This document shows positions 4,270 through 23,152 of a DNA stretch of 23,152 nucleotides, one piece after another. Origin of the DNA: a virus; UHGV virus genome UHGV-0116223; one strand, 5' to 3'. Made by a program: the position numbers and the translations under genes. Below the pieces are notes generated by a model. That model was not told the DNA's origin and ran no database searches. It was given only the letters and a program-made list of their open reading frames with translations. Within the stretch, counting starts at the first letter, position 1, and every line of letters starts with the position of its first letter.

Positions 4270-5061
4270 ATGGAATCACGTAATTCATATGAAAACAAAA
4301 TAGATGAGATTTCATCTTTGTCAGAGTCAAAGGAACACCCCATAGATATTCAAGAAAAAAAAGATGCGTTTGTGAATGAGTTCAAGGGGGTATTATTTGA
4401 TAAAAATACAAGGTCTTCAGAGCTTCTGTTTAATTTTTATGAGTGTTGCTATAAGTTTTTACCAAGAGCTCAGCCTCAAGATAAAATCGATAGCTATAAT
4501 TCAGCACTGCAAGCTTTTTCCATTTTTTGTTCATCTACGTTGACACATAATAATATAGGCTTTGATTTCAAATTATTTCCTGAAGTCAAGCTGTCTGGAG
4601 AACATCTTGAAACGGTATTCAAATACAAAAATGGCGATGATGTCCGGGAGATAGCCAAAATTAACATTACTCTCCAAAAAGAAGAGGGTGGTTTATATAA
4701 TTTACGTGGATTGGATTTTAAGGGGTGCTTCTTTTCTGGACAGAACTTCAGTAACTATGATATTCAATATGTGAACTGGGGAATGTCATTGTTTGATGTT
4801 GATACTCCGTGTATTTTTAATGCGCCTGCTTACAACAAGAGTAATGAAAAATCATTAAAACCTGTGAGCGAAAACGGTTTAAGTGGAGTATTGACTGATC
4901 GTAATAATAAAATAAAACTCATCACGGGCGTGGCACCATTCGATGATATTTTATTTATGGATGATGACTTTGATGATAGTTCCTCTGAGGATGATCCCGT
5001 TGAGAATAGTCCTGTTGTGACTAGTCCCGTTGTATCAAGTTCTAAAAGCAGTTTTCAATGA
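4270..5061 (+). CDS. ypjB: hypothetical protein (263 aa) with acidic Ser/Pro/Asp-rich C-terminal tail; same frame as 3688-4170 and lacks its own RBS
   Basis: ORF in the same phase as 3688 (offset 582 nt). The 99 nt between (4171-4269) are stop-free in frame. No Shine-Dalgarno before the ATG at 4270. Low GC. Confidence 0.6.
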   Translation: MESRNSYENKIDEISSLSESKEHPIDIQEKKDAFVNEFKGVLFDKNTRSSELLFNFYECCYKFLPRAQPQDKIDSYNSALQAFSIFCSSTLTHNNIGFDFKLFPEVKLSGEHLETVFKYKNGDDVREIAKINITLQKEEGGLYNLRGLDFKGCFFSGQNFSNYDIQYVNWGMSLFDVDTPCIFNAPAYNKSNEKSLKPVSENGLSGVLTDRNNKIKLITGVAPFDDILFMDDDFDDSSSEDDPVENSPVVTSPVVSSSKSSFQ

Positions 5062-5330
5062 TTAATAAATGGCAATTTTTACAAAGAGATAATAACGTAG
5101 ATTGAAACAATATGTATTATTGATTGAGTAAACGGGATTATTCTTCACACTACATCCATTTTAGTGTCACTACCAAAGAAAAAGGGGCTACGTTTTCATG
5201 TAACCCCTTGATTTATTTGGTGGGCTGGCAGTGACTGAATTGGTGCTGTAATTGGTTGAAATATTTCATCTAATGTCTGGTTCAACTTTCCTTAGCTGCC
5301 TGAAAGTTTTTTGATCTTACCCAGCAATAA

Positions 5331-5396
5331 CAGCGTTACGGTGCACCACGCCTGACTGAAGAACTGCGTGCTCAGGGTTACCACTTCAACGTAAAA
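5331..5396 (+). mobile_element. IS3-family transposase (OrfB/InsF-like) internal fragment
   Basis: Translates to [22 protein letters not shown], nearly identical to the recalled IS3 OrfB segment [22 protein letters not shown]; preceded by an in-frame stop and followed by unrelated sequence. Confidence 0.6.
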
Positions 5397-5397
5397 C

Positions 5398-5572
5398 CGT
5401 GGCAGGAGGTCCGGACTGAAAAAACTGGTCAGGACATCATCGGCAGGGAACGCACTGCTAGTCTGTAAACTGAACCGACTGGGGCGCAGTATGTGGCATC
5501 TTGTCGTGCTGTTGGAGGAGCTGTGCGAACGTGGTATTAACTTTCGTGCTCTGGCCCAATCTATATTTGCCC
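5398..5572 (+). pseudogene. pinH: serine DNA invertase (Pin/Hin/Gin family) fragment lacking the catalytic N-terminus
   Basis: Frame +1 translation [53 protein letters not shown] aligns with Pin [53 protein letters not shown]. Begins exactly where the IS3 fragment ends. Confidence 0.65.
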
Positions 5573-5972
5573 AACAATGGGGGGACGAATGCTGTAAAAG
5601 TAAAACAATCTGCGATCTCAAAGTTATTGTGTGATTTTTATGTGAGCAGAAGATATTCATCAGAAACGATTATGTAAATCATTTTATTTTGCCAACGGCC
5701 TCATTGTCGAAAGAAAAAAATACGCCCGTATTTCCTGAATGGATTGACTTTTTTATCCAACCACACTTCAGCGCACTGCGTTTAAAAAATGCCTCATTCT
5801 TATGCGGAATATCATCATTTCATCATGATGTCTTTGATGAGCGGTGAACACAATACACTTGCGCTGTCTCTTCAGGATGAATCCCCTGGTCTGGTGCCTG
5901 TGGGCTGATGTTGCAGCAAAGCTAAGGTCGCTTAAACGCTACTCAGTATTCACTTTTCAGAGGATGAAATTT

Positions 5973-8900
5973 ATGAACAGGACCAGTCCCTATTATTGTC
6001 GCCGCTCAGTACTTTCCTTATTGATATCTGCCTTGATATATGCCCCGCCCGGGATGGCTGCCTTCACTACTAATGTTATTGGTGTGGTAAACGATGAGAC
6101 TGTAGATGGCAACCAAAAAGTGGATGAACGAGGTACAACAAATAACACTCATATTATCAACCATGGCCAGCAGAATGTTCATGGCGGGGTATCTAATGGA
6201 AGTCTTATTGAATCTGGTGGATATCAAGATATAGGAAGTCATAACAATTTTGTGGGGCAGGCTAATAATACAACCATTAACGGTGGCAGACAGTCAATTC
6301 ATGACGGGGGTATTTCCACAGGTACGACAATCGAGAGTGGCAATCAGGACGTTTATAAAGGGGGTATCAGCAATGGAACGACAATTAAGGGCGGTGCTTC
6401 ACGCGTAGAGGGAGGGAGTGCGAATGGAATACTCATTGATGGTGGTAGCCAGATAGTAAAAGTTCAAGGGCATGCTGATGGTACAACGATAAATAAGTCT
6501 GGCTCTCAGGACGTAGTACAAGGAAGTCTGGCAACGAACACAACCATAAATGGTGGTCGACAGTATGTTGAACAGAGCACAGTAGAAACAACAACCATTA
6601 AAAATGGCGGTGAGCAAAGAGTATATGAGAGCCGTGCGCTGGACACGACGATTGAAGGCGGAACTCAGTCTCTGAATAGTAAGTCAACGGCAAAAAATAC
6701 GCATATCTATTCTGGTGGCACGCAAATTGTTGATAACACCAGCACCTCGGATGTTATTGAAGTTTATTCTGGTGGCGTGCTTGATGTTAGTGGTGGTACG
6801 GCAACAAATGTTACCCAGCACGATGGTGCAATTTTAAAAACTAACACTAACGGTACGACGGTGAGCGGTACGAATAGTGAAGGTGCATTCTCCATCCACA
6901 ATCACGTGGCAGACAATGTGTTGCTGGAAAACGGTGGTCATTTAGACATAAACGCATATGGTTCGGCAAACAAGACGATTATTAAAGATAAAGGAACAAT
7001 GTCAGTTTTAACCAATGCTAAAGCTGATGCGACCCGAATAGATAATGGCGGGGTTATGGATGTTGCAGGAAACGCGACAAATACCATAATTAATGGTGGC
7101 ACACAGAATATTAATAATTATGGCATAGCCACAGGCACCAATATCAACAGCGGAACGCAAAATATCAAAAGCGGCGGGAAAGCTGACACAACAATTATAT
7201 CCTCCGGGAGCCGGCAGGTTGTTGAGAAAGATGGTACGGCAATTGGCAGCAATATTAGCGCCGGAGGCTCGCTGATTGTCTATACCGGCGGTATTGCACA
7301 TGGGGTTAACCAGGAGACGGGCAGTGCTTTAGTTGCCAACACGGGTGCAGGGACTGATATCGAAGGATACAACAAGCTCTCTCACTTCACTATTACCGGA
7401 GGGGAGGCTAATTATGTTGTGCTGGAAAATACCGGCGAACTGACGGTAGTGGCTAAAACCTCGGCGAAAAATACTACCATTGATACTGGCGGTAAGCTGA
7501 TTGTCCAGAAGGAGGCTAAAACAGATAGCACCAGACTTAATAATGGCGGCGTTCTGGAGGTTCAGGACGGTGGTGAGGCTAAGCATGTTGAGCAACAATC
7601 CGGCGGCGCATTAATTGCTTCCACGACCTCCGGAACACTTATCGAAGGAACCAACAGTTATGGTGATGCTTTCTACATCAGGAATTCAGAAGCTAAAAAT
7701 GTAGTGCTGGAAAACGCTGGCTCATTAACAGTCGTCACTGGTTCCCGCGCAGTTGACACGATTATTAATGCCAACGGCAAAATGGATGTTTATGGAAAAG
7801 ATGTTGGCACTGTACTCAATAGTGCTGGCACCCAAACAATATATGCCAGTGCCACTTCTGATAAAGCAAATATCAAAGGTGGCAAGCAAACGGTATATGG
7901 TTTAGCCACTGAAGCAAATATCGAAAGTGGTGAACAAATTGTTGATGGTGGGTCAACAGAGAAAACACACATCAATGGTGGCACGCAAACCGTTCAGAAT
8001 TATGGTAAGGCAATCAATACCGATATCGTCTCTGGCCTACAACAAATTATGGCAAACGGGACAGCGGAAGGTTCCATTATTAATGGGGGTTCACAGGTAG
8101 TTAATGAGGGCGGTCTGGCTGAAAACTCGGTGCTTAATGACGGCGGCACACTCGATGTGCGGGAGAAAGGCAGCGCAACGGGGATACAGCAGAGTAGCCA
8201 GGGCGCTTTGGTTGCAACCACCAGGGCGACGCGGGTCACAGGAACACGCGCGGATGGCGTCGCGTTCAGCATCGAGCAGGGTGCGGCGAACAATATCCTG
8301 CTGGCAAATGGCGGCGTGTTAACCGTGGAGTCAGACACCTCTTCTGACAAAACACAGGTCAATATGGGCGGACGGGAGATCGTCAAAACAAAAGCCACTG
8401 CGACAGGCACGACGCTCACCGGCGGTGAACAAATTGTCGAGGGTGTGGCGAATGAGACAACAATTAACGACGGCGGAATACAAACAGTTTCAGCTAACGG
8501 AGAGGCAATAAAAACAAAGATCAATGAAGGCGGTACGCTGACAGTCAACGATAATGGCAAAGCGACAGATATCGTCCAGAACAGCGGTGCCGCTCTCCAG
8601 ACGAGCACGGCTAACGGTATTGAAATCAGCGGTACTCACCAGTACGGTACTTTTTCCATTTCCGGCAATTTAGCGACCAATATGTTGCTGGAAAATGGCG
8701 GTAATTTATTGGTATTAGCAGGTACCGAAGCTCGCGACTCCACGGTTGGCAAGGGTGGGGCAATGCAAAACCTGGGTCAGGACTCCGCCACAAAGGTTAA
8801 CTCTGGCGGGCAATATACCCTTGGGCGGTCAAAAGATGAGTTTCAGGCTCTGGCCCGGGCAGAAGATCTCCAGGTCGCTGGCGGTACGGCAATCGTCTAC

Positions 8901-10553
8901 GCAGGTACGCTGGCGGATGCATCGGTCAGTGGCGCGACAGGAAGCCTGTCGTTAATGACGCCACGGGATAATGTTACGCCAGTTAAACTCGAAGGGGCGG
9001 TCCGGATTACCGATAGCGCGACATTGACTCTGGGAAATGGCGTCGATACCACGCTTGCCGACCTGACGGCTGCCAGCCGGGGCAGTGTCTGGCTTAACAG
9101 CAATAATTCCTGTGCAGGTACCAGCAACTGCGAATATAGAGTAAACAGTTTGCTACTCAACGACGGTGATGTTTATTTGTCAGCACAAACAGCAGCGCCT
9201 GCCACAACTAACGGTATCTACAATACGCTGACAACCAATGAACTTTCCGGTAGCGGTAATTTCTACCTGCATACCAACGTTGCAGGCTCCCGGGGCGATC
9301 AACTGGTCGTCAACAACAACGCCACTGGTAATTTTAAAATCTTTGTTCAGGATACCGGCGTCAGCCCACAGTCTGACGACGCGATGACGCTGGTGAAAAC
9401 AGGGGGAGGGGATGCTTCGTTTACGCTGGGCAATACCGGCGGTTTCGTTGATCTTGGGACCTATGAGTATGTCCTGAAAAGTGACGGCAACAGCAACTGG
9501 AACCTGACCAATGATGTCAAACCCAACCCGGACCCCATCCCAAATCCAAAGCCAGACCCAAAACCCGATCCAAAGCCAGACCCAAATCCAAAACCAGACC
9601 CTACTCCCGATCCAACGCCGACACCCGTTCCGGAGAAACGCATTACGCCTTCTACGGCAGCCGTACTCAATATGGCAGCAACATTACCGTTGGTATTTGA
9701 TGCTGAGCTAAACAGTATTCGCGAGCGGTTGAACATAATGAAAGCGAGTCCACACAACAATAATGTCTGGGGGGCGACGTATAACACCCGTAATAATGTC
9801 ACCACCGATGCGGGTGCCGGGTTTGAGCAGACGCTGACCGGAATGACAGTGGGGATCGACAGCCGTAATGATATTCCTGAAGGAATTACCACGCTAGGCG
9901 CTTTTATGGGCTATTCCCATTCACATATCGGTTTTGATCGCGGAGGACATGGCAGTGTGGGCAGTTATTCTCTGGGCGGCTATGCCAGTTGGGAACATGA
10001 AAGTGGTTTCTATCTGGACGGTGTCGTGAAGCTGAACCGTTTTAAAAGTAACGTAGCAGGTAAAATGAGCAGCGGTGGAGCCGCCAATGGCAGTTACCAC
10101 AGCAACGGGCTGGGCGGTCACATTGAAACCGGGATGCGATTTACCGATGGTAACTGGAACCTGACGCCGTATGCATCGTTAACGGGGTTCACCGCTGATA
10201 ACCCCGAATATCATTTATCCAATGGCATGAAATCGAAATCAGTCGATACCCGCAGTATATATCGTGAACTGGGCGCAACGCTGAGTTACAACATGCGTCT
10301 GGGGAACGGTATGGAAGTTGAGCCGTGGCTGAAGGCGGCTGTGCGCAAAGAATTTGTCGATGATAACCGGGTGAAAGTGAATAGTGACGGTAATTTCGTC
10401 AATTATTTGTCGGGCAGACGTGGAATATACCAGGCAGGTATTAAAGCCTCATTCAGCAGTACGTTAAGCGGGCATCTTGGGGTGGGGTATAGCCATAGTG
10501 CCGGTGTGGAATCCCCGTGGAACGCGGTAGCTGGTGTGAACTGGTCGTTCTGA
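5973..10553 (+). CDS. ypjA: AIDA-I-type autotransporter adhesin (1526 aa): extended signal peptide, beta-helical passenger, Pro-rich linker, C-terminal beta-barrel
   Basis: MKF-MNRTSPYYCRRSVLSLLISALIYA extended signal peptide (ATGs at 5964 and 5973, GAGG upstream). About 19-aa degenerate repeats (TTINGGxQxV...GG). PNPDPIPNPKPDPKPDP linker. C-terminal aromatic-rich barrel ending ...AGVNWSF. TGA at 10551-10553. Length 1526 aa from 5973 matches recalled K-12 ypjA. Confidence 0.9.
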   Translation: MNRTSPYYCRRSVLSLLISALIYAPPGMAAFTTNVIGVVNDETVDGNQKVDERGTTNNTHIINHGQQNVHGGVSNGSLIESGGYQDIGSHNNFVGQANNTTINGGRQSIHDGGISTGTTIESGNQDVYKGGISNGTTIKGGASRVEGGSANGILIDGGSQIVKVQGHADGTTINKSGSQDVVQGSLATNTTINGGRQYVEQSTVETTTIKNGGEQRVYESRALDTTIEGGTQSLNSKSTAKNTHIYSGGTQIVDNTSTSDVIEVYSGGVLDVSGGTATNVTQHDGAILKTNTNGTTVSGTNSEGAFSIHNHVADNVLLENGGHLDINAYGSANKTIIKDKGTMSVLTNAKADATRIDNGGVMDVAGNATNTIINGGTQNINNYGIATGTNINSGTQNIKSGGKADTTIISSGSRQVVEKDGTAIGSNISAGGSLIVYTGGIAHGVNQETGSALVANTGAGTDIEGYNKLSHFTITGGEANYVVLENTGELTVVAKTSAKNTTIDTGGKLIVQKEAKTDSTRLNNGGVLEVQDGGEAKHVEQQSGGALIASTTSGTLIEGTNSYGDAFYIRNSEAKNVVLENAGSLTVVTGSRAVDTIINANGKMDVYGKDVGTVLNSAGTQTIYASATSDKANIKGGKQTVYGLATEANIESGEQIVDGGSTEKTHINGGTQTVQNYGKAINTDIVSGLQQIMANGTAEGSIINGGSQVVNEGGLAENSVLNDGGTLDVREKGSATGIQQSSQGALVATTRATRVTGTRADGVAFSIEQGAANNILLANGGVLTVESDTSSDKTQVNMGGREIVKTKATATGTTLTGGEQIVEGVANETTINDGGIQTVSANGEAIKTKINEGGTLTVNDNGKATDIVQNSGAALQTSTANGIEISGTHQYGTFSISGNLATNMLLENGGNLLVLAGTEARDSTVGKGGAMQNLGQDSATKVNSGGQYTLGRSKDEFQALARAEDLQVAGGTAIVYAGTLADASVSGATGSLSLMTPRDNVTPVKLEGAVRITDSATLTLGNGVDTTLADLTAASRGSVWLNSNNSCAGTSNCEYRVNSLLLNDGDVYLSAQTAAPATTNGIYNTLTTNELSGSGNFYLHTNVAGSRGDQLVVNNNATGNFKIFVQDTGVSPQSDDAMTLVKTGGGDASFTLGNTGGFVDLGTYEYVLKSDGNSNWNLTNDVKPNPDPIPNPKPDPKPDPKPDPNPKPDPTPDPTPTPVPEKRITPSTAAVLNMAATLPLVFDAELNSIRERLNIMKASPHNNNVWGATYNTRNNVTTDAGAGFEQTLTGMTVGIDSRNDIPEGITTLGAFMGYSHSHIGFDRGGHGSVGSYSLGGYASWEHESGFYLDGVVKLNRFKSNVAGKMSSGGAANGSYHSNGLGGHIETGMRFTDGNWNLTPYASLTGFTADNPEYHLSNGMKSKSVDTRSIYRELGATLSYNMRLGNGMEVEPWLKAAVRKEFVDDNRVKVNSDGNFVNYLSGRRGIYQAGIKASFSSTLSGHLGVGYSHSAGVESPWNAVAGVNWSF
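9520..9630 (+). repeat. imperfect tandem 12/24-bp repeats encoding the (P-x-P-D/K) autotransporter linker
   Basis: ccaaagccagacccaaa occurs at 9546-9562 and 9570-9586, embedded in a run of cc(a/c)(a/g)a(c/t)cc(a/g)ga(c/t) units. Confidence 0.6.
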
Positions 10554-12184: not shown

Positions 12185-13360
12185 TCAAGCCTGTTTTGTA
12201 TCATTAGTATTTTTAGCGGTATGTCCGTCATATGCAGCAAGGTAACTGCCATAGTGACGAAATAGCATTTCTGGTCCCTTATGGCCCATCTGGCCTGCAA
12301 GCCAGAACAGGTTCGCACCACGGCTGATATGGCTGGTGGCGAATGTATGCCTGGTCTGATATGGGTTACGGTACCGGATACCTGCTTTACGTAAGGTTGG
12401 TATCCACGCTTTTTTCCTTATCGCATCGGCGCTGGCCCACGGTTTGTTTGTCTTTGGATCTTCAAAGACAGTAGCATCCTTCATGAATGTAAATGGCTTC
12501 TGATTTATCAGCGCCAACATTGCCTCTTCTGTCAGTTCAACTTTACGAGTACCGGCTTTTGTCTTTGTTCCTTTGATAACACCGACAACACTTGCGCTCT
12601 GGACATGGGCAGTTTTTCCAACAAAGTCGATATCACGCCATCGAAGGGCACATAATTCAGAACTACGCAGGCCTGTATGTATAGCGAACCGGAACAGATT
12701 TTCCCATTGTTTGTTTCCGGCTGCTGCTAGTAATGCATCAACTTCTGCTGGTGATAGCGGATCAACCACGTAGCTGCTTTCTGCTTCTGACTTATCACTT
12801 TGGTAGCGCGAAGCAGTTACCAACGATACGGGGTTAATTTGAAGTACCCCATCGGTTACGGCTTCATCAAGTGCTGACCGCAGGAAAGATAACTGGTTGC
12901 GAATTGTTTTTGAGGTCGTTTTCTGGCTTTGAATCCACGCTTTCAGGATTGCTGGTGTTAATTCACTTGCAGGGCAAATGTGGAGTGAGGCTAACGCACT
13001 ACGGCATTTTTTATAACCACCAATCGTAGAGGGTGAAAGTTTTCTCGTTTCGCAGATTTCAAGGTATTCGTCCAGGTACATTTTTACCGTTTTGCCTGCA
13101 GCAGCATTACCAAAAATTTTCAAACGAGCAGAACGGGGAAAATATTCCGCATAAATGAATGTTCCCCTTTCGATCTTATTATGAATTTCGCCGAGTGTGC
13201 GCTCGGCGTATTTTATGTTCTTTGGTATTACTTCCAGATTGGAAAGAGGCTCACGACATTTAACTCCTTTGTAGGTGAAAGTTATATTGATCGTTTCGCC
13301 CTGGCGGTGTTTCCTGATTGTTACGCCGCGCGGTAGTTTGAGCAGTTTTGTCTGGCCCAT
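12185..13360 (-). CDS. phage tyrosine integrase (site-specific recombinase)
   Basis: 391 aa. Catalytic-domain motifs TGLRSSELCALRWRDID, RHTFATSHISRG, LAGQMGH and RHYGSY (Arg-His-Arg-Tyr set). GAGG RBS before the ATG at 13360. Overlapped at its 5' end by the excisionase-like gene. Confidence 0.93.
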   Translation of the reverse strand: MGQTKLLKLPRGVTIRKHRQGETINITFTYKGVKCREPLSNLEVIPKNIKYAERTLGEIHNKIERGTFIYAEYFPRSARLKIFGNAAAGKTVKMYLDEYLEICETRKLSPSTIGGYKKCRSALASLHICPASELTPAILKAWIQSQKTTSKTIRNQLSFLRSALDEAVTDGVLQINPVSLVTASRYQSDKSEAESSYVVDPLSPAEVDALLAAAGNKQWENLFRFAIHTGLRSSELCALRWRDIDFVGKTAHVQSASVVGVIKGTKTKAGTRKVELTEEAMLALINQKPFTFMKDATVFEDPKTNKPWASADAIRKKAWIPTLRKAGIRYRNPYQTRHTFATSHISRGANLFWLAGQMGHKGPEMLFRHYGSYLAAYDGHTAKNTNDTKQA

Positions 13361-13527
13361 TTTGCAACCTCACTAAGATCAATCCACCTCTCCTTAACGC
13401 CTTCAACCTTTAAAACCTGAACACCTTCACGCCAAACACCGCGCTGTACACGTTTGTTTATTGCTTCAGGAGTTTCGCCAGTTTCTTTGCAATAAGTTGA
13501 GATTGGAACACAATCGAGGTTCAGCAT
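13321..13527 (-). CDS. putative excisionase / small DNA-binding protein (about 68 aa)
   Basis: Small basic ORF immediately upstream of int and overlapping its start by 40 nt. GGAG RBS 6 nt before the ATG at 13525-13527 (the table start at 13539 is a GTG further upstream). Call rests on position and size only. Confidence 0.5.
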   Translation of the reverse strand: MLNLDCVPISTYCKETGETPEAINKRVQRGVWREGVQVLKVEGVKERWIDLSEVAKWARQNCSNYRAA

Positions 13528-13586
13528 ATGTTTCTCCACTTAGCCCGCTGCACACGGGCAGTAATATCAAATTCCAGTCCTGATAA

Positions 13587-13802
13587 TTAATTTTGTTCCC
13601 TGGTTGCTACCTGTTTTATTGGCCTGATGCTGTCCAGTAGCAGACGGCGACGCATGTTAGGTGCCCCCCAACGGTAACCAGTCTTTTTGTCGTAGGATTC
13701 ACAACGTCCGGCAACCCAGGACGTTTCAGTGGAATGTAATTTCATCCGCTTTTCACCGTCTCGGGTGATAACAATTCCTGTATGAGTTTTTATCACGCTC
13801 AT
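13587..13802 (-). CDS. hypothetical phage early protein (71 aa)
   Basis: ATG overlaps the stop of the upstream gene (ATGA, 13799-13802), indicating translational coupling. Confidence 0.5.
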   Translation of the reverse strand: MSVIKTHTGIVITRDGEKRMKLHSTETSWVAGRCESYDKKTGYRWGAPNMRRRLLLDSIRPIKQVATREQN

Positions 13803-14161
13803 TTCTTAGTCTCTGGTGCTTTCGGCATTACTGCCCAGTGAGTGATATTGACGTTTTCAAGGTCCCCGACCTGAAATGTCCACTGCCATTCTCCGGTTTC
13901 TTTTTGTCCCCAGGTGTACCAGAGAGAACGCCAGCCAATCAGCCAGCCTTCTCCGTTAGCATCAAATAACAGAACACTTTCATTTGCTGGTGGCAGTTCA
14001 GCTGACACTGGTATTATTTTGCTTTCCAGTGCCGCACATTTAGCTTCAAGCGCGTCGAATTTACGTACCAGGTACTCAGCATTTGTTTCGTTCACTTTCA
14101 GATCTCGCGGTACACATTTCCCGCGAAGAAACCCTTCCATTTCGAAAACATTCATGCGCAT
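13799..14161 (-). CDS. phage protein with DUF551-like C-terminus (120 aa; YfdS-like)
   Basis: C-terminal WxxGxxxTGEWQW...THWAVMPKAPE resembles the DUF551 signature common in lambdoid early regions. GGAG RBS. Length matches recalled CPS-53 YfdS. Confidence 0.6.
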   Translation of the reverse strand: MRMNVFEMEGFLRGKCVPRDLKVNETNAEYLVRKFDALEAKCAALESKIIPVSAELPPANESVLLFDANGEGWLIGWRSLWYTWGQKETGEWQWTFQVGDLENVNITHWAVMPKAPETKK

Positions 14162-14688
14162 TTGCGTAACTCCGATAATTCGTTAAAGCGTTCCATAAAC
14201 ATCCCGTAGGCATGGCCTGGAGCCAGTGGAATCACGTTGAACATCTCTGTTGCCGGGATACCTTCCAGCACAGGCCAGAAAGAGCCATCATCAAGCCCGA
14301 GATCGCGGCGTTCGGTTGCCAGCATGATGAGATCGGCATATTTCACTGGCGTGCTCATAACAGGAGGTAACCCGTATTTCTCACGGATTACGGCGTCTAT
14401 TTTTTCTTCCATCCGTTTATAGTCAGGAAGAAGTCGTTTCAGTGGTGCGGGGATGTCTTGGCAATACGCTTCTGTTGCATCATGCATTAACGCTTCAAAA
14501 GCAAATTCCTGCGGCACCAGCTGGCTGCAAAGAACCGCATGTTGGGCGACGCTGTAGAAGTGCGAAAGATGACCGGCAAAGCGACAGATATTTGAAAGGG
14601 AAACCGCGATATCGTTAATATCGATGTCGTCTTTATTTATCCTGTCATAATAAAAATGCTTCCCGGAAAAAGTTTTAATAAATGACAT
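14152..14688 (-). CDS. HD-domain phosphohydrolase (YfdR/YfbR-like 5'-deoxynucleotidase family), about 178 aa
   Basis: H...HD metal-binding motifs (RFAGHLSHFYSVAQH, LMHDATEAY). Probable start is the ATG at 14686-14688 with GGAG RBS (the table ORF starts 9 codons earlier). Confidence 0.75.
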   Translation of the reverse strand: MSFIKTFSGKHFYYDRINKDDIDINDIAVSLSNICRFAGHLSHFYSVAQHAVLCSQLVPQEFAFEALMHDATEAYCQDIPAPLKRLLPDYKRMEEKIDAVIREKYGLPPVMSTPVKYADLIMLATERRDLGLDDGSFWPVLEGIPATEMFNVIPLAPGHAYGMFMERFNELSELRKCA

Positions 14689-14781
14689 TTTGTTCTCCAC
14701 GTATATGCGCTGCACCGCGCTGAATTCTGGTAAAAAGAATCCCTCACCATCCGGCGATTATTGAGTAAATTACGTTTCCAT

Positions 14782-14803
14782 AAATGCCCCCGCAGGGGCA
14801 TTT
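14782..14803 (-). terminator. hairpin between the YfdQ-like and HD genes
   Basis: Perfect 9-bp stem aaatgcccc/ggggcattt with 4-nt loop, 13 nt downstream of the stop at 14816; T-rich on the minus-strand 3' side. Confidence 0.45.
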
Positions 14804-14815
14804 GCAGTAATGAAA

Positions 14816-15640
14816 TCAGGCGGTGAAAGTACCAATAAAGGTTTCTACTTTGCTGTCCTTGAATTTCTCAACAAGCAGATCACGAAATTCGTTAGCCATT
14901 TCTTCCTGCACCGCCTCCAGCTGAATAATGCGCAGAACCAGTACAGGACGATCGCCAGTGATAATACTGAGGCGTAATTTAAACGGACGTTCTTTCAGAC
15001 CTTCAAACGGAACGCATTTAAATTCAAATGCCACTGGCATAATGTCTTTGGTCTTCGCTTCGACAGACTCCATCAGGGAGCGTTTGCCGCTGAAGTCATT
15101 ATCTTCAAAATCAGCGGTCTGGTTTGCTTCAATCGTGATTTTACGGACAGCCGCAGCCGCTTTTGTTGCCTGAATAGCGTCACCATTAGCATCAAAGCCC
15201 ACAAGATAGTCGGCCCAGTCTTCAATCCATTCTGCCAGTGACTTCTGGGAGTTACGCTCGCCGTTAACAGACAACAGAGCAGAGAACGGTGCTGTCTTTT
15301 TCAGTTTGAGTGTGGCGGTGTTATCTGCGTGACCTGGTTCATCAATAGTACCCAGGTTAAGCACACTGACGGCACGCATATTATCAGCATCGATAAAGCA
15401 GCGGGTGCCTTCATCTGCAAGATCTTTAGAATAACGGGTAAAGTCATCGATGCTGGCAGTGGAAAGCGCACCACGGAAACGGAAGCGATTTAAATTAAAT
15501 TTTTCCAGATCATGAATGCGGAAATTCTCAGGCAATGCCACAGCATCGGCACCAATCTTACTGATAATTTCATTAACACCCTGAGCAGAAATAAGGGCAT
15601 GGATTTGATTAATTGCGGTTGCGTCTAAGTTCTGAGACAT
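14816..15640 (-). CDS. phage early protein, YfdQ-like (274 aa)
   Basis: 274-aa ORF with GAGGA RBS. Same length and neighbourhood (next to the HD protein) as recalled CPS-53 YfdQ. Homology is recalled, not computed. Confidence 0.65.
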
Positions 15641-15705
15641 AATAAGTCCTCACTATATAAAGATATTCAGTGATGAGATAAATAATCAGTTAATTAAAAA
15701 CGATA

Positions 15706-16068
15706 TTAACGACCTGCTGCGCGGAGTTTTCCGTCAGGTTCACCGGCAAGAGTCAGTAACTGTCCCTGGTCTTCCTGCAGAATAGTCAGGCGACCACCGC
15801 GATTGACATACATCGGCGTTTCGGTGGTGTCTTCTTCGGAAATTTTCCCGCGGTTAGTCGGGCGAACATATGAGAGTTTGTGTTTGATTTTCACACGGTT
15901 CTCATCAAATGGTTCGATTTCCAGGTTGAGTGAGACCTTACCTTTGGTTTTCGTGTTCATCACACCGGAAGCGACTTCACTGAGAACTGCGCCGATTTTG
16001 GTTTCAAATACGCCGCCGTCCAGCTCCCCGATAAATGCCTGCACATCAGTACTGCGTTCGCTAGCCAT
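15706..16068 (-). CDS. phage early protein (120 aa from the ATG at 16068; YfdP-like)
   Basis: GAGGAG RBS 7 nt upstream of the ATG at 16066-16068 (MASERSTD...). Last early gene before the lysis cassette. Confidence 0.6.
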   Translation of the reverse strand: MASERSTDVQAFIGELDGGVFETKIGAVLSEVASGVMNTKTKGKVSLNLEIEPFDENRVKIKHKLSYVRPTNRGKISEEDTTETPMYVNRGGRLTILQEDQGQLLTLAGEPDGKLRAAGR

Positions 16069-16116
16069 TTTGCTGCTCCTCATCATATCGACCCTGCAAG
16101 GCCGATTAGTTTCTCC

Positions 16117-16205
16117 ACAAAACAGAGAAGAACACCTGCGGTGGCAGCCGCCCGGATGGATTGGGTTATGAGCCCGTCGTCCGGTGATGCTCTTCTCTGT
16201 TTTGT
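16117..16205 (+). promoter_or_regulatory. 15-bp perfect inverted repeat (59-nt spacer) bracketing the holin start codons
   Basis: acaaaacagagaaga (16117-16131) and tcttctctgttttgt (16191-16205) are exact reverse complements. Flanking cacc (16133-16136) / ggtg (16183-16186) extend the stem. Encloses the ATGs at 16156 and 16168. Confidence 0.45.
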
Positions 16206-16485
16206 AAAAAGGACGGTATTCTACATAGCAACAGCAGCAGATCTGAGTGCATCGCGCCGACTGGCATATTTTATCGTGTCATATATTGCCGGGATCCTTT
16301 GCTCTGGGTTGGTTGGCTCCAAGCTGGCGCACTTGACCGGATACAGTGATAAACCTCTGGATGCTATTGGTGCCGTAATCGTCTCTGCTTTAGCCGTTAA
16401 AATCCTGACGTTCCTGAATAATCAGGATATCGGCTCGCTGGTGGCGCTCATAACGCGCCGGGGAGGTTCAGGTGGAGCTAAATGA
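16156..16485 (+). CDS. holin (lambda S-like), possible dual-start motif M-D-W-V-M
   Basis: Small protein with 2-3 TM segments and charged C-terminus. C-terminal DIGSLVALITRRGG resembles lambda S DSIGSLIKRFAAKKAG. In-frame ATGs at 16156 and 16168. First gene of the lysis cassette. Confidence 0.7.
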   Translation: MDWVMSPSSGDALLCFVKRTVFYIATAADLSASRRLAYFIVSYIAGILCSGLVGSKLAHLTGYSDKPLDAIGAVIVSALAVKILTFLNNQDIGSLVALITRRGGSGGAK

Positions 16486-16753
16486 CCCGACAGCAACTAT
16501 AAATGCGCTGTTATGTGCTTGTGTTGTTATTACTCTGATGTTTTATCGTCGTGGTTATTCGCGGCATCGTCCTTGGGTTTCACGTTTAGCCTGGCTGATT
16601 ACTGTTACATACAGTGCTGTTCCGTTGGCCTATCTCTGTGGGATTTATCCCCATTCCTCATGGCCCATTATCGTGGCGAACACTATTTTTCTTTCCGTGC
16701 TGGTGGCCGTCAGAGGCAACGTTGCACGTCTGGTTGATCATCTGAGGCACTAA
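16472..16753 (+). CDS. lysis-cassette membrane protein (93 aa, 3 TM); possible second holin or antiholin
   Basis: GTG start with GGGAGG RBS at 6-nt spacing; overlaps the holin stop; ends 1 nt into the endolysin ATG. Three hydrophobic helices. Confidence 0.5.
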   Translation: MELNDPTATINALLCACVVITLMFYRRGYSRHRPWVSRLAWLITVTYSAVPLAYLCGIYPHSSWPIIVANTIFLSVLVAVRGNVARLVDHLRH

Positions 16754-17370
16754 TGAACCAACAATTATTTCAAAAGGCGGCTGGTATTAGCGCCGGGCTG
16801 GCTGCGCGCTGGTTTCCGCACATTGATGCTGCAATGAAAGAGTTTGGAATCACAGCAGTTAACGATCAGGCCATGTTCATTGCACAAGTTGGGCATGAAT
16901 CTGCTGGTTTTACCTCGCTGGTGGAAAGCTTCAACTACTCGGTAGACGGGCTGAAGAAAACCTTTAGTAAACGCCTGACGCCTTATCAGTGTGAAATGCT
17001 GGGGCGTGTCGATGGTAAGCAGGTAGCCCACCAGCCGCAAATAGCCAATCTGGTTTATGGTGACCGCATGGGGAATAACAGCCAGGGTGACGGCTGGAAA
17101 TATCGCGGTCGTGGCCTGCTTCAAATCACCGGCCGCGAGAACTACGCCAAATGCGGTGCGGCGCTGAAGTTGGATCTGATCAGCACACCAGAGTTGCTGA
17201 CACAGGAGAAACATGCAGCCCGTTCTGCTGCATGGTATTTCACATTACGTGGTTGTCTGATGTATTCAGGTGATGTTGTCCGTGTAACGCAGATCATCAA
17301 CGGTGGCCAGAATGGACTGGCTGACAGAAATAGTCGTTATAACAAAGCGCGGGCGGCGTTGCTGGTATGA
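16753..17370 (+). CDS. endolysin, glycoside hydrolase family 19 (chitinase-like lysozyme)
   Basis: [12 protein letters not shown] and [13 protein letters not shown] motifs typical of GH19 phage endolysins. GAGG RBS. Stop overlaps the Rz start (ATGA). Confidence 0.85.
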
Positions 17371-17903
17371 CAGCGGTCTTTGCTTTTGTTCAGGCGCGGT
17401 GGAAAACAATCATTGTTTTGCTGATGTTGGCTGGTGCATTTCTTGCCGGGAACATCTGGAGTGAGCGGGGCTGGCAAAAGAAGTGGGCTGACCACAATAG
17501 CATGGAATCTTCACAGGAAGCGAACGCGCAGACTGCCGCACGCTGGATTGAACAAGGGCGCATAATTGCCCGTGATGAGGCTGTAAAAGATGCACAAGCA
17601 CAAGCCGCTAAATCTGCTGCCACTGCTGCTGGCCTGTCTGCCACTGTTAGCCAGTTGCGTACCGAAGCAACAAAGCTTGCCGCACGCCTGGACGCCGCAA
17701 AGCACACCGCTGATCTTGCCGCTGCCGTCCGAAGCAAAACAACCGACGCCGACGCCGGAATGTTCGCCGACATGCTCGGAGATATTGCAGCAGAAGCTAA
17801 ACGTTATGCTGGAATCGCTGACGAACGCTACACCGCCGGGATGACGTGTGAACGTATTTACGACTCGTTGAGAGAGTCAAATAACGCTATCCCCCACAAT
17901 TGA
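17367..17903 (+). CDS. i-spanin (Rz-like)
   Basis: N-terminal TM helix ([17 protein letters not shown]) followed by Ala/Gln/Lys-rich coiled-coil-like region. Directly follows the endolysin gene. Confidence 0.75.
17590..17844 (+). CDS. o-spanin lipoprotein (Rz1-like) embedded in the +1 frame of Rz
   Basis: Signal peptide [23 protein letters not shown] with lipobox L-A-S-C, then Pro-rich mature region. Entirely nested within 17367-17903. Confidence 0.7.
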
Positions 17904-17969
17904 TTTTTTATCATATTCGAACGACTATGAAGGGTGTAAACAATTATAATCCAGTGATGAATTTTTCAA

Positions 17970-18245
17970 ATGTCAAAGCAAGGATATGCAGTGAGTGGTC
18001 ATAGTGATGGTTTAGCAGATATTTTGAGCATTGTAATTGTATTAGCAGTGGAACATTGGATTATCGCATCTCTCATAGTTGGTTTGATTATGTATCTAGT
18101 GGGGGCGAGCATAAACGAAAATGCTCAGACAAATGCCGGTGCCATTGCATCGGGAATCATAGGGGTATGTGGTCAATTTATTTTTGGTTTTGGCGTTCTG
18201 GCTAGCATTATTGGGATTGTTAAATTCATTTGGACCCACACCTGA
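17970..18245 (+). CDS. small glycine-zipper membrane protein (91 aa), moron
   Basis: Two hydrophobic helices with GxxxG-type repeats (GAIASGIIGVCGQFIFGFGVLASIIG). About 40% GC. Perfect TATAAT at 17945-17950 upstream; hairpin plus T5 terminator downstream. No clear SD (a GTG at 17991 is an alternative start). Confidence 0.55.
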   Translation: MSKQGYAVSGHSDGLADILSIVIVLAVEHWIIASLIVGLIMYLVGASINENAQTNAGAIASGIIGVCGQFIFGFGVLASIIGIVKFIWTHT

Positions 18246-18267
18246 CAGCATCACTTTAGTCAATCAT

Positions 18268-18291
18268 AGCCTCGCAATAGCGGGGCTTTTT
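18268..18291 (+). terminator. intrinsic terminator after the moron gene
   Basis: Stem agcctcgc / gcggggct (8 bp, one G-U pair), loop aata, followed by ttttt. Confidence 0.55.
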
Positions 18292-18309
18292 AACAACTGA
18301 GGTATGAGC

Positions 18310-18507
18310 ATGACAGTAGTTCTTACAGCTAAGCAGATTGAAGACCTAGCAGCATTCGCGAAAGAAGATGGTCAGCCCCAATACACCATCACCACTGGTA
18401 CAATCCCGGAATTCGAAGCGGATGATGGCGAGATTATCCCTGAATACACAGGGCTGATCGCTTACTCAGAGTCACTTGAGCACGGTGTATTGCAACTCGA
18501 CGATTAG
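18310..18507 (+). CDS. small strongly acidic protein (about 65 aa)
   Basis: GAGG at 18299-18302, 7 nt before the ATG at 18310. About 14 Asp/Glu against 2 Lys and 1 His (estimated net charge about -12). Confidence 0.55.
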   Translation: MTVVLTAKQIEDLAAFAKEDGQPQYTITTGTIPEFEADDGEIIPEYTGLIAYSESLEHGVLQLDD

Positions 18508-18570
18508 TGGCATTCAGCAGGCATTCATTAAGTGTCTGCGATAATGCTATACGTTTTTTGGGGAGTGAAT

Positions 18571-18921
18571 ATGCCACCGCGCACACCAAAGGCTTGCCGT
18601 GTTCGCGGCTGTCGCAACACCACAACAGACCCATCTGGCTACTGTGAAAATCACAAAGGTGAAGGCTGGAAGTCCTACAAGCCTGGTCAATCACGGCAGC
18701 AGCGAGGATACGGAACAAAGTGGGAAGTCATCCGGGAGCGGATACTTAAGCGCGACAAAGGGCTGTGTCAGAACCATCTACGGCAGGCGATAGTGAAGCA
18801 GGCGTCCTGCGTGGACCACATCAAGGCGAAGGCCCACGGCGGTACTGATGAAGACAGCAACCTTGAAAGCCTGTGCTGGTCGTGTCACGCAGCGAAGACC
18901 GCGCGTGAGCGGCTCAAGTGA
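18571..18921 (+). CDS. HNH homing-type endonuclease (terminase-associated)
   Basis: GGGGAG RBS before the ATG at 18571. Zinc-finger Cys pairs (CRVRGC...CENH; CWSCH) and the HNH motif region CVDHIKAKAHGG...N. Located immediately upstream of the small terminase. Confidence 0.85.
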   Translation: MPPRTPKACRVRGCRNTTTDPSGYCENHKGEGWKSYKPGQSRQQRGYGTKWEVIRERILKRDKGLCQNHLRQAIVKQASCVDHIKAKAHGGTDEDSNLESLCWSCHAAKTARERLK

Positions 18922-19047
18922 TAATTAATGTCATCATCAGACTGGGGAGGGGGAGGTCAAATCTCTGCGACCGCGCGCCTTCCGGACTGCCCGCCCCATC
19001 GTTTTTTTATACCCGCGAAAAATGAAATTTAACCAGGAGTGCCGCAT

Positions 19048-19542
19048 ATGGCTGGAACGGCGGGGCGTTCCGGGCGTCGCCCCAAGCCAACGGCGCGCAA
19101 GGCGCTGGCCGGAAACCCCGGCAAGCGAGCCCTGAATAAAGATGAACCTGTTTTTACGCCCATCAAAGGTGTTGAGCCACCGGAGTGGTTCACAGAAGAA
19201 GAGCTCCCTCTCGCCACGATCATGTGGCAACTGACAACCAAAGAACTCTGCGGTCAGGGCCTGCTGTGCGTGACTGACCTGGCGGTACTTGAGCGGTGGT
19301 GCGTGGCCTATGAGTTCTGGCGACGTGCCGTGAAAAATATTGCCAGACAGGGCAACACCATCACCGGTGCAATGGGCGGCATGGTCAAAAATCCGGAGCT
19401 GACCGCCAAAAAAGAACAGGAGTCCGAGATGAGCAGCACGGGTGCAATGCTCGGACTCGACCCCAGCAGCCGCCAGCGTCTGATTGGCCTGGCGGGGCAG
19501 AAGAAAGCCACTAACCCGTTTCTGAAAATCATCGAGTCATGA
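19048..19542 (+). CDS. terminase small subunit (P27-like family)
   Basis: AGGAG RBS 9 nt before the ATG at 19048. N-terminal GRSGRRPKP...LAGNPGKR motif. Stop overlaps the TerL start (ATGA). Confidence 0.85.
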
Positions 19543-21272
19543 GCCGGAAATCTTACCCCAACGTAAATGCTGCTAATCAGTATGCCCGTGATGTCGTGCG
19601 CGGAAAGATTGTGGCCTGCCAGTTTGTGATTCAGGCCTGCCAGCGCCATCTTGATGACCTGATGGCGGAAAAAAGTAAGTCGTTTCGTTACCGCTTCGAC
19701 AAGGACCTGGCTGAACGGGCCGCGAAATTTATTCAGCTGTTGCCACACACCAAGGGGGAGTGGGCATTCAAACGGATGCCCATCACGCTGGAGCCGTGGC
19801 AGCTCTTTGTGATCTGCTGTGCGTTTGGCTGGGTCAATAAAGGCTCCCGGCTGCGCCGCTTCCGGGAGGTGTATACCGAAATCCCCCGTAAGAACGGCAA
19901 ATCGGCAATCTCTGCCGGTGTTGCCCTGTATTGTTTTGCCTGTGATAACGAGTTTGGCGCGGAAGTGTATTCCGGTGCCACGACAGAGAAACAGGCGTGG
20001 GAAGTTTTTCGTCCGGCGCGACTGATGTGTAAACGCACACCCATGCTGACGGAAGCGTTCGGGATTGAGGTTAACGCCTCAAACATGAACCGTCCGGAGG
20101 ATGGCGCGCGGTTTGAACCGCTGATCGGCAACCCCGGTGATGGTTCATCACCCCACTGTGCCGTGGTTGATGAATATCACGAGCATGCCACCGATGCGCT
20201 TTATACCACAATGCTTACCGGGATGGGGGCGCGACGTCAGCCACTGATGTGGGCCATCACCACCGCCGGGTACAACATTGAGGGGCCGTGCTACGACAAG
20301 CGGCGGGAAGTCATCGAGATGCTCAACGGCTCGGTGCCTAACGATGAACTGTTCGGGATCATCTATACCGTTGATGAAGGTGACGACTGGATCGACCCGC
20401 AGGTGCTGGAAAAAGCCAATCCAAATATTGGCGTGTCGGTTTATCGCGAATTTTTGTTAAGTCAGCAGCAGCGTGCGAAAAATAACGCCCGTCTGGCAAA
20501 CGTCTTTAAAACAAAACACCTCAATATCTGGGTGTCGGCACGTTCGGCGTATTTCAACCTGGTGAGCTGGCAGAGCTGCGAGGATAAATCACTGTCCCTT
20601 GAGCAGTTCGAGGGGCAACCGTGCATCCTGGCCTTTGACCTGGCGCGTAAGCTGGATATGAACAGTATGGCGCGACTTTATACCCGCGAGATTGACGGTA
20701 AAACGCATTACTACAGTGTGGCTCCGCGCTTCTGGGTACCGTATGACACGGTGTACAGCGTCGAGAAAAATGAAGATCGCCGGACAGCCGAACGCTTTCA
20801 GAAATGGGTGGAGATGGGGGTTCTGACCGTTACCGATGGTGCGGAGGTGGATTATCGCTACATCCTCGAGGAGGCCAAAGCGGCGAACAAAATCAGCCCG
20901 GTCAGCGAGTCACCCATCGACCCCTTCGGGGCGACCGGGCTGTCACATGACCTTGCTGATGAAGACCTGAACCCCGTCACCATCATTCAGAACTACACCA
21001 ACATGTCCGACCCGATGAAAGAGCTGGAAGCGGCAATTGAATCGGGGCGCTTTCATCATGATGGCAATCCCATCATGACCTGGTGTATCGGCAACGTGGT
21101 CGGCAAAACCATTCCGGGTAACGATGATGTGGTGAAGCCTGTCAAGGAGCAGGCGGAAAACAAAATCGATGGTGCGGTTGCACTGATTATGGCGATCGGT
21201 CGGGCAATGCTCAAAGAACCCGACGATTTCCTCTCATCTCTTGATCCGGACGATGCTCTCTTAATTCTATGA
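19539..21272 (+). CDS. terminase large subunit (ATPase/nuclease)
   Basis: 577 aa. Walker-A-like EIPRKNGKS. Typical size and position after TerS. Confidence 0.93.
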
Positions 21273-21430
21273 AATCACTAATTGCTGATGTTATCGGGCT
21301 GGCTGGTTTTGGCCTGCTTACGTGCGGGTTTTACCTGCAGTTTGGTATGGCTCCGGCTCTGATGCTGTCCGGCGGTTTACTGCTGGTGGGTGCACTGGCT
21401 ATGGCCAGAAGGGGGACGCGTGCTGCTTGA
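21269..21430 (+). CDS. possible small membrane protein (53 aa) between terminase and portal
   Basis: ATG overlaps the TerL stop (ATGA at 21269-21272). Encodes [53 protein letters not shown], ending TGA at 21428-21430. Below the size cutoff of the ORF track. Confidence 0.3.
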
Positions 21431-22475
21431 TGCTCTGTTCAGAAGTAAATCACTGGAGAATCCTTCCACCCCGATAACCGGGGATGCCGTTGATACTGAT
21501 GGGCTGTTCCGGGCAGACGTTTATGTCAGTCCTGAAACTTCGATGAAACTGGCTGCGGTGTATTCCTGTATCTATGTCCTGTCTTCCAGCCTTGCCCAGA
21601 TGCCGTTGCATGTTATGCGCAGGCACAATGGGAAGGTTGAGCCCGCACGCGATCATCCGGCGTTTTATCTGGTTCATGATGAGCCCAATACCTGGCAAAC
21701 CAGTTACAAATGGCGCGAACTGAAGCAACGTCACATCCTTGGCTGGGGGAATGGGTATACCTGGGTGAAACGTAATCGTCGCGGTGAAGTCATATCCCTG
21801 GATTGCTGTATGCCGTGGGAAACGACGCTGATGAATACTGGTGGTCGATACACCTACGGTTTGTACAACGAATATGGGGCGTTTGCGATCAGCCCCGACG
21901 ATATGATCCACATCCGTGCGCTGGGTAATAATCAGAAGATGGGGCTGAGTCCGATTATGCAACATGCCGAAACAATAGGCATGGGGATGAGCGGTCAGAA
22001 ATACACAGAAAGCTTCTTCAGCGGTAATGCCCGTCCGGCGGGGATAGTATCCGTTAAAAGCGGACTCAATAAGGACAGCTGGGGCTGGCTTAAAGATCAG
22101 TGGCAGAAGGCATCGCAGGCGTTACGCAGCCAGGAAAACAAAACCATGCTGCTGCCAGCCGATCTGGATTACAAGGCACTGACTGTGTCGCCAGTTGACG
22201 CTCAGATCATTGACATGATGAAACTGAACCGTTCAATGATTGCCGGTATTTTCAATATTCCTGCGCACATGATTAATGACCTCGAAAAAGCCACCTTCTC
22301 CAATATTTCTGCGCAGGCGATTCAGTTTGTCCGCTACACGATGATGCCGTGGGTGACGAACTGGGAGCAGGAGCTTAACCGTCGCTTGTTTATCTGGGGC
22401 GACACCGTTGTCGAGTGCGTGCTTAACAAACTCTGCCCGTCGCATACCTACGTAATTTTTAAATATCCGGAGTAA
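21420..22475 (+). CDS. portal protein (HK97 family), probably C-terminally truncated
   Basis: GTG at 21420 with GGGGGA RBS gives an N-terminus LLDALF typical of HK97-type portals. Conserved central region ([26 protein letters not shown]). Ends after only 351 aa with an atypical tail ([21 protein letters not shown]), and the next gene is tail-fibre-like. Confidence 0.75.
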
Positions 22476-22478
22476 TCC

Positions 22479-23102
22479 ATGCATCGTATAGACACGAAAA
22501 CCGCGCAGAAGGATAAGTTCGGCGCGGGTAAAAACGGTTTTACCCGTGGTAACCCCCAGACAGGCACGCCTGCCACCGATCTGGATGATGACTACTTTGA
22601 CATGTTGCAGGAAGAGCTTTGCAGCGTGGTGGAGACATCCGGTGCCAGTCTGGAGAAGGCGCGGCACGACCAGTTGCTTACCGCGCTTCGTGCGCTGCTG
22701 TTAAGCCGCAAGAATCCGTTTGGCGATATCAAATCGGATGGCACAGTGAAAACGGCTCTCGAAAACCTTGGTTTGGGAGAAGCGGCAAAACGGAATGTGG
22801 GAACAGGAGAAAATCAGATACCTGATATGTCAGCTTATTCATCAGGATCTGGCTGGCAAAAATTGCCTGATGGTTCAATTGAGCAGTGGGGAAGAATTAA
22901 TTTCCCGAATAACGCCGCGGCGGTATCTACAAATGTGACTTTCACCATTCCTTTTACGCAGGAGCCAGACGTAGTGATTGTATATGACGGCGGTTTTGGT
23001 GGTGGGAATATGTGGGGCGCAACTAACTGGACGAAAACAGGTTTCGTTGCTCATTGTAACTATGGCTTTGAAGGTGGAGCCTTCTACGCGAAAGGGCGTT
23101 AA
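22479..23102 (+). CDS. tail-fibre-like protein (207 aa)
   Basis: GGAG RBS. N-terminus [48 protein letters not shown] resembles N-terminal domains I associate with phage tail fibres. Gly-rich C-terminus. Homology not computed. Confidence 0.45.
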
Positions 23103-23104
23103 TT

Positions 23105-23152
23105 ATGAAATATTTGTATGTTGATAATCTGGCGTACCCTTATGCCCTCCAG
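23105..23152 (+). CDS. 5' end of an ORF continuing past the window (possibly a tail-fibre assembly/chaperone gene)
   Basis: ATG at 23105, 2 nt after the tail-fibre stop; MKYLYVDNLAYPYAL... Only 16 codons visible. Confidence 0.25.
   Translation, partial: MKYLYVDNLAYPYALQ

Follow-up and report, generated by a model that had tools for sequence, protein, structure and literature searches.

A gene of 198 nt on the plus strand of a prophage remnant (positions 18310-18507), set between the lysis genes and the HNH-terminase block, encodes a strongly acidic protein of 65 residues. The gene is real, conserved, and dispensable, and it sits in a bounded cargo slot. The DNA in which it lies, hereafter the window, is the 23,152-nt virus genome UHGV-0116223. 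In our preferred reading, to which we give a probability of roughly one in three, the protein acts late in infection and inhibits a host or rival-element protein by binding it one-to-one. Four other readings, in which it is a DNA mimic, a lysis factor, an anti-repressor, or a packaging helper, are each more weakly supported than this one. If the protein does neutralize a host or rival system at that stage, it would represent a new class of phage counter-measures.

Sequence, family, and predicted structure

The reading frame offers two in-frame start codons, an ATG at 18304 that would give 67 residues and the ATG at 18310 that gives 65. We assign the start to 18310 because the Shine-Dalgarno sequence GAGG (18299-18302, plus strand) lies 7 nt before it, because several alleles have either no ATG or an in-frame TAA at the upstream position, and because PGAP annotates a 198-nt gene in an identical prophage copy. 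The GAGG is conserved across loci, in keeping with the good ribosome-binding site described in the initial annotation. On recount, the composition reported there proved exact, with 14 acidic residues (6 Asp and 8 Glu) against 2 Lys and 1 His, and no Arg; both acidic clusters that it singled out, EFEADDGEIIPEY and LQLDD, are found in the protein. The calculated pI is ≈4.05 and the net charge is ≈−12, which ranks the product first in acidity among the 116 open reading frames of at least 50 residues in the window (−0.18 charges per residue versus −0.057 for the runner-up). Strong acidity is a genuine property of the whole family as well: across 38 diverse members, the domain of ≈60 residues carries a median net charge of −8. 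Composition, domain scans, and inspection revealed no membrane segment, signal sequence, lipobox, or muralytic domain.

The protein is a genuine member of phrog_9518, the uncharacterized phage family that includes N15 gp56; residues 2-67 match profile positions 1-66 of 66 with an E value of 1.7e-40. A large protein collection holds 295 homologs, all of them labeled either "hypothetical" or "phage protein." The family is small. When 1.8 billion cluster representatives were searched exhaustively with a profile, 64 matched at E ≤0.001; some of these matches are spurious, and we discarded the long LRR and Ig-like repeat proteins among them as low-complexity matches. Scans of Pfam, NCBIfam, and PADLOC gave no match to the protein, and literature searches by peptide, accession, PHROG identifier, and hairpin sequence found no mention of the protein or of the hairpins described below.

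Among isolated phages, tblastn recovered homologs in mEp390 (gp53, 95% identity), SaltyDalty, a Klebsiella phage, an Enterobacter phage, and N15 (gp56, 54% identity). Relatives are known from E. coli Nissle 1917, Citrobacter, Enterobacter, and Klebsiella, and the exact protein sequence is present on 771 Enterobacteriaceae contigs. The gene is carried by 34 of 5,426 complete E. coli genomes, Nissle 1917 among them. Myovirus-like, N15-like, and Mu-like phages all carry the protein at 90-100% identity. Across 52 distinct alleles, dN/dS is ≈0.06-0.10 at a dS of ≈0.75, and the gene is thus under strongly purifying selection.

The residues that are invariant in the family occupy hydrophobic core positions (L7, I12, L15, Y48, G50, and A53), and acidic residues are conserved at alignment columns 21-22, 38, 47, 58-59, and 66. 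The family alignment contains no conserved catalytic pattern. An invariant hydrophobic core combined with conserved acidic columns agrees better with a binding protein than with an enzyme. The acidic hairpin EFEADDGEI, which the initial annotation had stressed, is deleted in the N15 subgroup.

AlphaFold2, run on the 38-sequence alignment, gave a model of moderate confidence (pLDDT 76.7, pTM 0.51) with a helix at residues 9-22, strands at 28-34, 48-54, and 62-64, and, between the first and second of these strands, a small hairpin. The protein is predicted to be soluble, with an alpha+beta arrangement in which one helix packs on a small antiparallel sheet. A Foldseek comparison of this model with the PDB identified no structural relative (best E 0.58), and the best hit in BFVD was an uncharacterized Aeromonas phage protein at E 0.15, which we do not count as a relative. 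A sequence-profile search of the PDB gave no match either. The comparison of folds with DNA mimics proposed in the initial annotation thus revealed no similarity to the solved mimics.

Some distant relatives carry N- or C-terminal extensions, which we considered as a clue to function and set aside, as they match only other PHROG families without known function. One fusion protein of 217 aa (P0185, encoded at 5001-5654 of locus L093) combines the acidic domain with one of phrog_8618/1935, itself found as an alternative cargo gene of the same slot, which suggests that adjacent cargo genes can fuse.

Neighbors and boundaries of the cargo slot

The lysis cassette of the window (16472-17903, plus strand) consists of genes for a holin (16472-16753), a GH19 endolysin (16753-17370), and a DUF2514 i-spanin (17367-17903), in which that of an o-spanin (17590-17844) is embedded, all on the plus strand. 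Between the spanin and a first hairpin, hairpin 1, lies the gene of a 91-aa predicted membrane protein of phrog_28582, a family of unknown function (17970-18245, plus strand). This gene is an extra insert, present at this place in 10 of the 84 close loci; it is A+T-rich (GC 0.41) and has a perfect TATAAT ≈20 nt upstream. Past the acidic gene and a second hairpin, the HNH endonuclease gene (18571-18921) precedes those of a P27-type small terminase (19048-19542) and the large terminase (19539-21272), again on the plus strand. The large terminase of the window departs from the usual allele in its last 26 residues.

In all 84 close loci, the acidic gene lies just 3' of the lysis cassette, often 24 nt past the spanin stop codon, and the post-lysis position is kept in most distant relatives, with M15, GH24, or GH108 endolysins. 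Gene orders in these relatives include two holins and a GH108 endolysin before the acidic gene, a holin and an M15 peptidase, a holin and a 69-aa gene, and a holin, lysozyme, and 100-aa gene, the last of these at a prophage end with the terminase far off. This persistence, and with it the separation of lysis cassette and terminase in one such prophage, would be in keeping with a lysis accessory or regulator that, for example, tunes lysis timing through a host factor. Several observations nevertheless make such a role improbable. The closely related SfV, which shares its HNH and terminase block with the window, lyses without the acidic gene; its Rz1 gene is followed after 26 nt by HNH, and the 91-aa membrane gene, the acidic gene, and both hairpins are absent. 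The acidic protein itself has none of the membrane segments or export signals of lysis proteins, and near-identical versions of it are found beside unrelated holins, endolysins, and spanins. As we describe below, hairpin 1 is a generic mark of the slot and explains the link in position.

Because SfV manages without it, the gene is dispensable for lysis and for packaging. Neighbors of the near-identical protein comprise at least three spanin families, at least four endolysin families, and several terminase types, and this mixture, together with the absence from SfV, identifies the gene as optional cargo rather than as part of either module. The occurrence of the same protein beside unrelated modules also makes it unlikely that its binding partner is a phage module. 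The initial annotation had placed the gene in an accessory slot, and this placement holds, given that the gene is missing from SfV and that many alternative genes fill the slot.

A role as a helper of HNH-terminase DNA packaging is suggested by adjacency. The gene adjoins HNH and terminase in the window, HNH is the downstream gene in 28 of the 84 loci, and in a Mu-like phage the gene lies between a small-terminase-like DUF1804 gene and the large terminase. At most loci, however, other genes intervene or the terminase is of another type (a cold-shock-like gene is next in 16 of the 84, with glycosyltransferases, various terminases, and others elsewhere), the relative at a prophage end is far from any terminase, and SfV packages its DNA without the protein. 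We therefore regard this as the least probable of the roles considered, and very improbable in its own right.

The left boundary of the slot is hairpin 1 (18268-18291, plus strand), a terminator-like element with an 8-bp G+C-rich stem, an AATA loop, and a T-run (AGCCTCGC-AATA-GCGGGGCT-TTTT) that folds at −17.3 kcal/mol (z −3.3). Homology between loci begins at this hairpin, which precedes the acidic gene in nearly all 84 loci, the exception being a Klebsiella phage locus (L004), and which is identical in sequence in N15 despite the 54% protein identity. More than 120 viral-contig copies contain its exact 22-mer, and 68 of the 81 copies examined precede genes other than the acidic gene. Hairpin 1 (GCCTCGCAATAGCGGGGCTTTT) can be described more generally as a widespread, almost invariant element located where prophage lysis cassettes end (loci L099-L178). 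Since it marks a generic slot, the post-lysis position of the acidic gene is best read as occupancy of a cargo slot and not as a lysis function. The initial annotation had also taken the upstream neighbor for a terminated moron; the terminator-like hairpin is indeed present, but it belongs to the slot and not to the 91-aa gene, which only 10 of the 84 loci possess.

The cargo seen most often in the slot consists of Rha-like, Ant, or KilA-N-type regulators (24 of 78 genes), and the others include small genes of phrog_6978, 1453, 17079, 3909, 322, 774, 717, and 1935. This company raises the idea that the acidic protein is an anti-repressor or regulator that acts on a resident prophage or satellite by binding the DNA-binding surface of a repressor, and small protein anti-repressors such as P1 Coi and CarS are known. 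The argument is one of guilt by position, however; profile scans detected no homology to any anti-repressor, and the acidic gene is without the structured leader of the ant-type cargo. We find this role improbable as well, and a little more so than one in lysis. The leader in question is a conserved stretch of ≈130 nt that directly follows hairpin 1 at loci with Ant, Rha, or KilA-N-type cargo (L099, L100, L101, L105, and others). Its sequence (ttatgcgcatcgcacgcgcacatc...agcctgag...ggctcac...aaaagg) looks structured, and it may be a regulatory RNA.

Three nucleotides past the stop codon of the acidic gene, a two-tier stem-loop, hairpin 2 (18510-18547, plus strand), pairs GCATT with AATGC in its outer stem and CAGCAGGCA with TGTCTGCG in its inner stem, with a folding energy of −20.5 kcal/mol (z −4.1). 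Across 33 loci, 92.8% of the aligned cells are paired, versus 28-40% when the partners are slid; 10 of the 14 pairs show compensatory changes, and the inner stem exists in at least five different sequences. Hairpin 2 usually has no T-run, and 108 of 117 further copies come after the stop codons of different genes. It could be an mRNA 3' stabilizer, a processing site, or a recombination linker. A simple pattern scan for this two-tier hairpin (outer stem GCATTA/TAATGC, inner stem variable) counted 141 copies in the 2.8 Mb of loci fetched, versus 24 in shuffled sequence; these copies, at loci L219-L292, are sometimes 220-700 nt apart and directly follow the stop codons of many unrelated small prophage genes. 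An Rfam scan of positions 17800-19100 assigned neither hairpin to a known RNA family.

We had considered that both hairpins might be the acidic gene's own, and we rejected this idea when scans of the collection showed that most copies flank other cargo. Of all the results of the analysis, these generic "punctuation" hairpins were the least expected, and they may account for the movement of such cargo genes from phage to phage. The homologs N15 gp56 and mEp390 gp53 share full-length homology, the post-spanin position, and the upstream hairpin with the window gene, whereas N15 differs from the window in lacking both the acidic beta-hairpin insert and hairpin 2.

Expression timing and state of the prophage

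In an intact E. coli prophage, that of strain ECZP248, Q, the holins, endolysin, spanin, membrane gene, acidic gene, HNH, and terminase follow one another on one strand. We found no promoter-like site for the acidic gene, and the T-run of hairpin 1 ends ≈7 nt before the ribosome-binding site and ≈18 nt before the ATG at 18310. Because the slot opens with a terminator-like hairpin, it is probably transcribed only by the antiterminated polymerase of the late operon. By its position, then, the acidic gene is probably expressed through antiterminated late transcription and at no other time. Such late-only timing argues against a conversion or defense gene expressed from the prophage, and also against an early anti-restriction role of the Ocr type.

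Among described concepts, the nearest is the variable "ant moron" in the late operons of P22-like phages, a slot in which antirepressor genes and genes without known function are frequent (PMC2629481). The slot of the acidic gene is likewise fast-changing and part of the late operon, and, as with this element and the morons of HK97 and HK022, the gene is inserted between genes that adjoin each other in a relative, here SfV. Insertion of this kind is one trait of morons in the sense of Juhala and Hendrix; the other, a promoter of its own with a terminator downstream, is not seen, as we found no promoter. In this the acidic gene differs from typical morons, with the terminator-like hairpin in front rather than behind, so that, unlike them, it is probably not expressed from the prophage. 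The 91-aa membrane gene is the better candidate for a prophage-expressed moron.

The prophage remnant spans positions 12185-23152 of the window and is decayed. Relative to ECZP248, it is missing two segments. One, of ≈9 kb with its junction near 16216, comprises the immunity and replication regions, Q, and the first holin gene's 5' end; the other, of ≈15 kb, runs from portal to baseplate, and its loss falls between ≈21194 and ≈22391. None of the complete E. coli genomes of the collection has this arrangement. The acidic gene of the window is identical in sequence to the intact copies, and it may be silent here because the prophage has decayed and the Q region is gone. To the left of the prophage integrase gene (12185-13360, minus strand) lies a host gene (5844-10553) for an autotransporter adhesin of the AIDA type, whose 1,569 residues include 11 AIDA repeats as well as a pertactin and a beta-barrel domain.

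A possible late inhibitor and the question of DNA mimicry

The acidic gene is optional cargo in a variable post-lysis slot of temperate phages of Enterobacterales, and in the reading that we prefer, its product would bind a partner one-to-one through a conserved acidic patch. This patch would be formed by E21-D22-G-Q-P, which follows the helix, and S57-E58-E59-H60-G61, which precedes the last strand (67-aa numbering), a contact site suggested by the alignment and the predicted secondary structure. Its partner would probably be a basic nucleic-acid-binding surface on a host or rival-element protein, which the acidic protein would neutralize late in infection as a decoy-type, counter-defense-like inhibitor. 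We favor an inhibitor because the protein is near-identical beside unrelated modules and in different host genera, because its acidity is conserved, because it bears no enzyme signature, and because it is dispensable. Searches of Pfam, NCBIfam, PADLOC, PDB, and BFVD revealed no kinship in sequence or fold to known mimics or anti-defense proteins. A point on the other side is the persistence of the post-lysis position, distant relatives included, which could reflect a lysis-linked role.

A wider version of this reading, which we hold to be rather unlikely, combines a new fold family of late decoy inhibitors that shield unrelated temperate phages with a hairpin-marked cassette exchange of cargo genes. 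The host or rival-element system countered by the decoy would then be one that is triggered late in infection, and small cargo genes would be swapped between enterobacterial prophages at the structured "punctuation" sites.

T7 Ocr, ArdA, T4 Arn, PBS2 Ugi, phi29 p56, and T7 gp5.9 are small, soluble, strongly acidic proteins without enzyme motifs that are encoded at accessory positions, and the acidic protein resembles these inhibitors in all of these respects. It could accordingly be thought a classical DNA mimic, which like Ocr or ArdA would imitate DNA and so block restriction enzymes of type I or of other types. Its family-wide negative charge and small size are in line with this idea, and its own charge density is high (−12 in 65 residues, a figure taken from composition). 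In N15, moreover, the stop codon of gp56 overlaps the start of the next gene, unlike in the window, and this next gene, of the DUF4406 type, is followed by a cytosine methyltransferase gene. Against mimicry, neither profile nor fold searches of the PDB linked the protein to Ocr, ArdA, Arn, Ugi, p56, Gam, or gp5.9, and Pfam, NCBIfam, and PDB sequence searches gave no match that would place the protein in the Ocr or ArdA families. Where Ocr and ArdA are made first on entry, the acidic gene lies late, behind a terminator-like hairpin, a difference in timing that follows from its late-operon position. The N15 subgroup does without the most acidic hairpin, and no counterpart to the DNA-like charge array of the mimics is evident in the sequence of the acidic protein. 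Charge is the sole support for DNA mimicry or anti-restriction, and we consider a classical mimic decidedly improbable. A late-acting counter-defense role, as in our preferred reading, may be compatible with the results that argue against early anti-restriction.

The gene is not enriched beside methyltransferases. A methyltransferase occurs near it in 5 of 56 loci versus 1 of 66, and we rejected on this ground the idea that the protein shields the products of a phage methyltransferase from type IV restriction. The locus also differs from a typical anti-CRISPR locus in that no aca-type HTH gene adjoins it; the genes downstream are HNH, cold-shock-like, and small unknown genes.

On plasmids, the acidic gene is intact only on N15-like phage-plasmids, and it shows no link to plasmid leading regions. 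A role in such regions was considered and rejected, as the only IncF copy that was read, at 7990-8190 of locus L333 (the large Klebsiella IncF plasmid pHNGS471-3), is a pseudogene among unrelated genes. This copy has no start codon and contains an internal stop, it does not lie in a leading region, and it is probably what remains of a prophage fragment. On about 20 similar IncF plasmids, a match of the same identity is present but unannotated.
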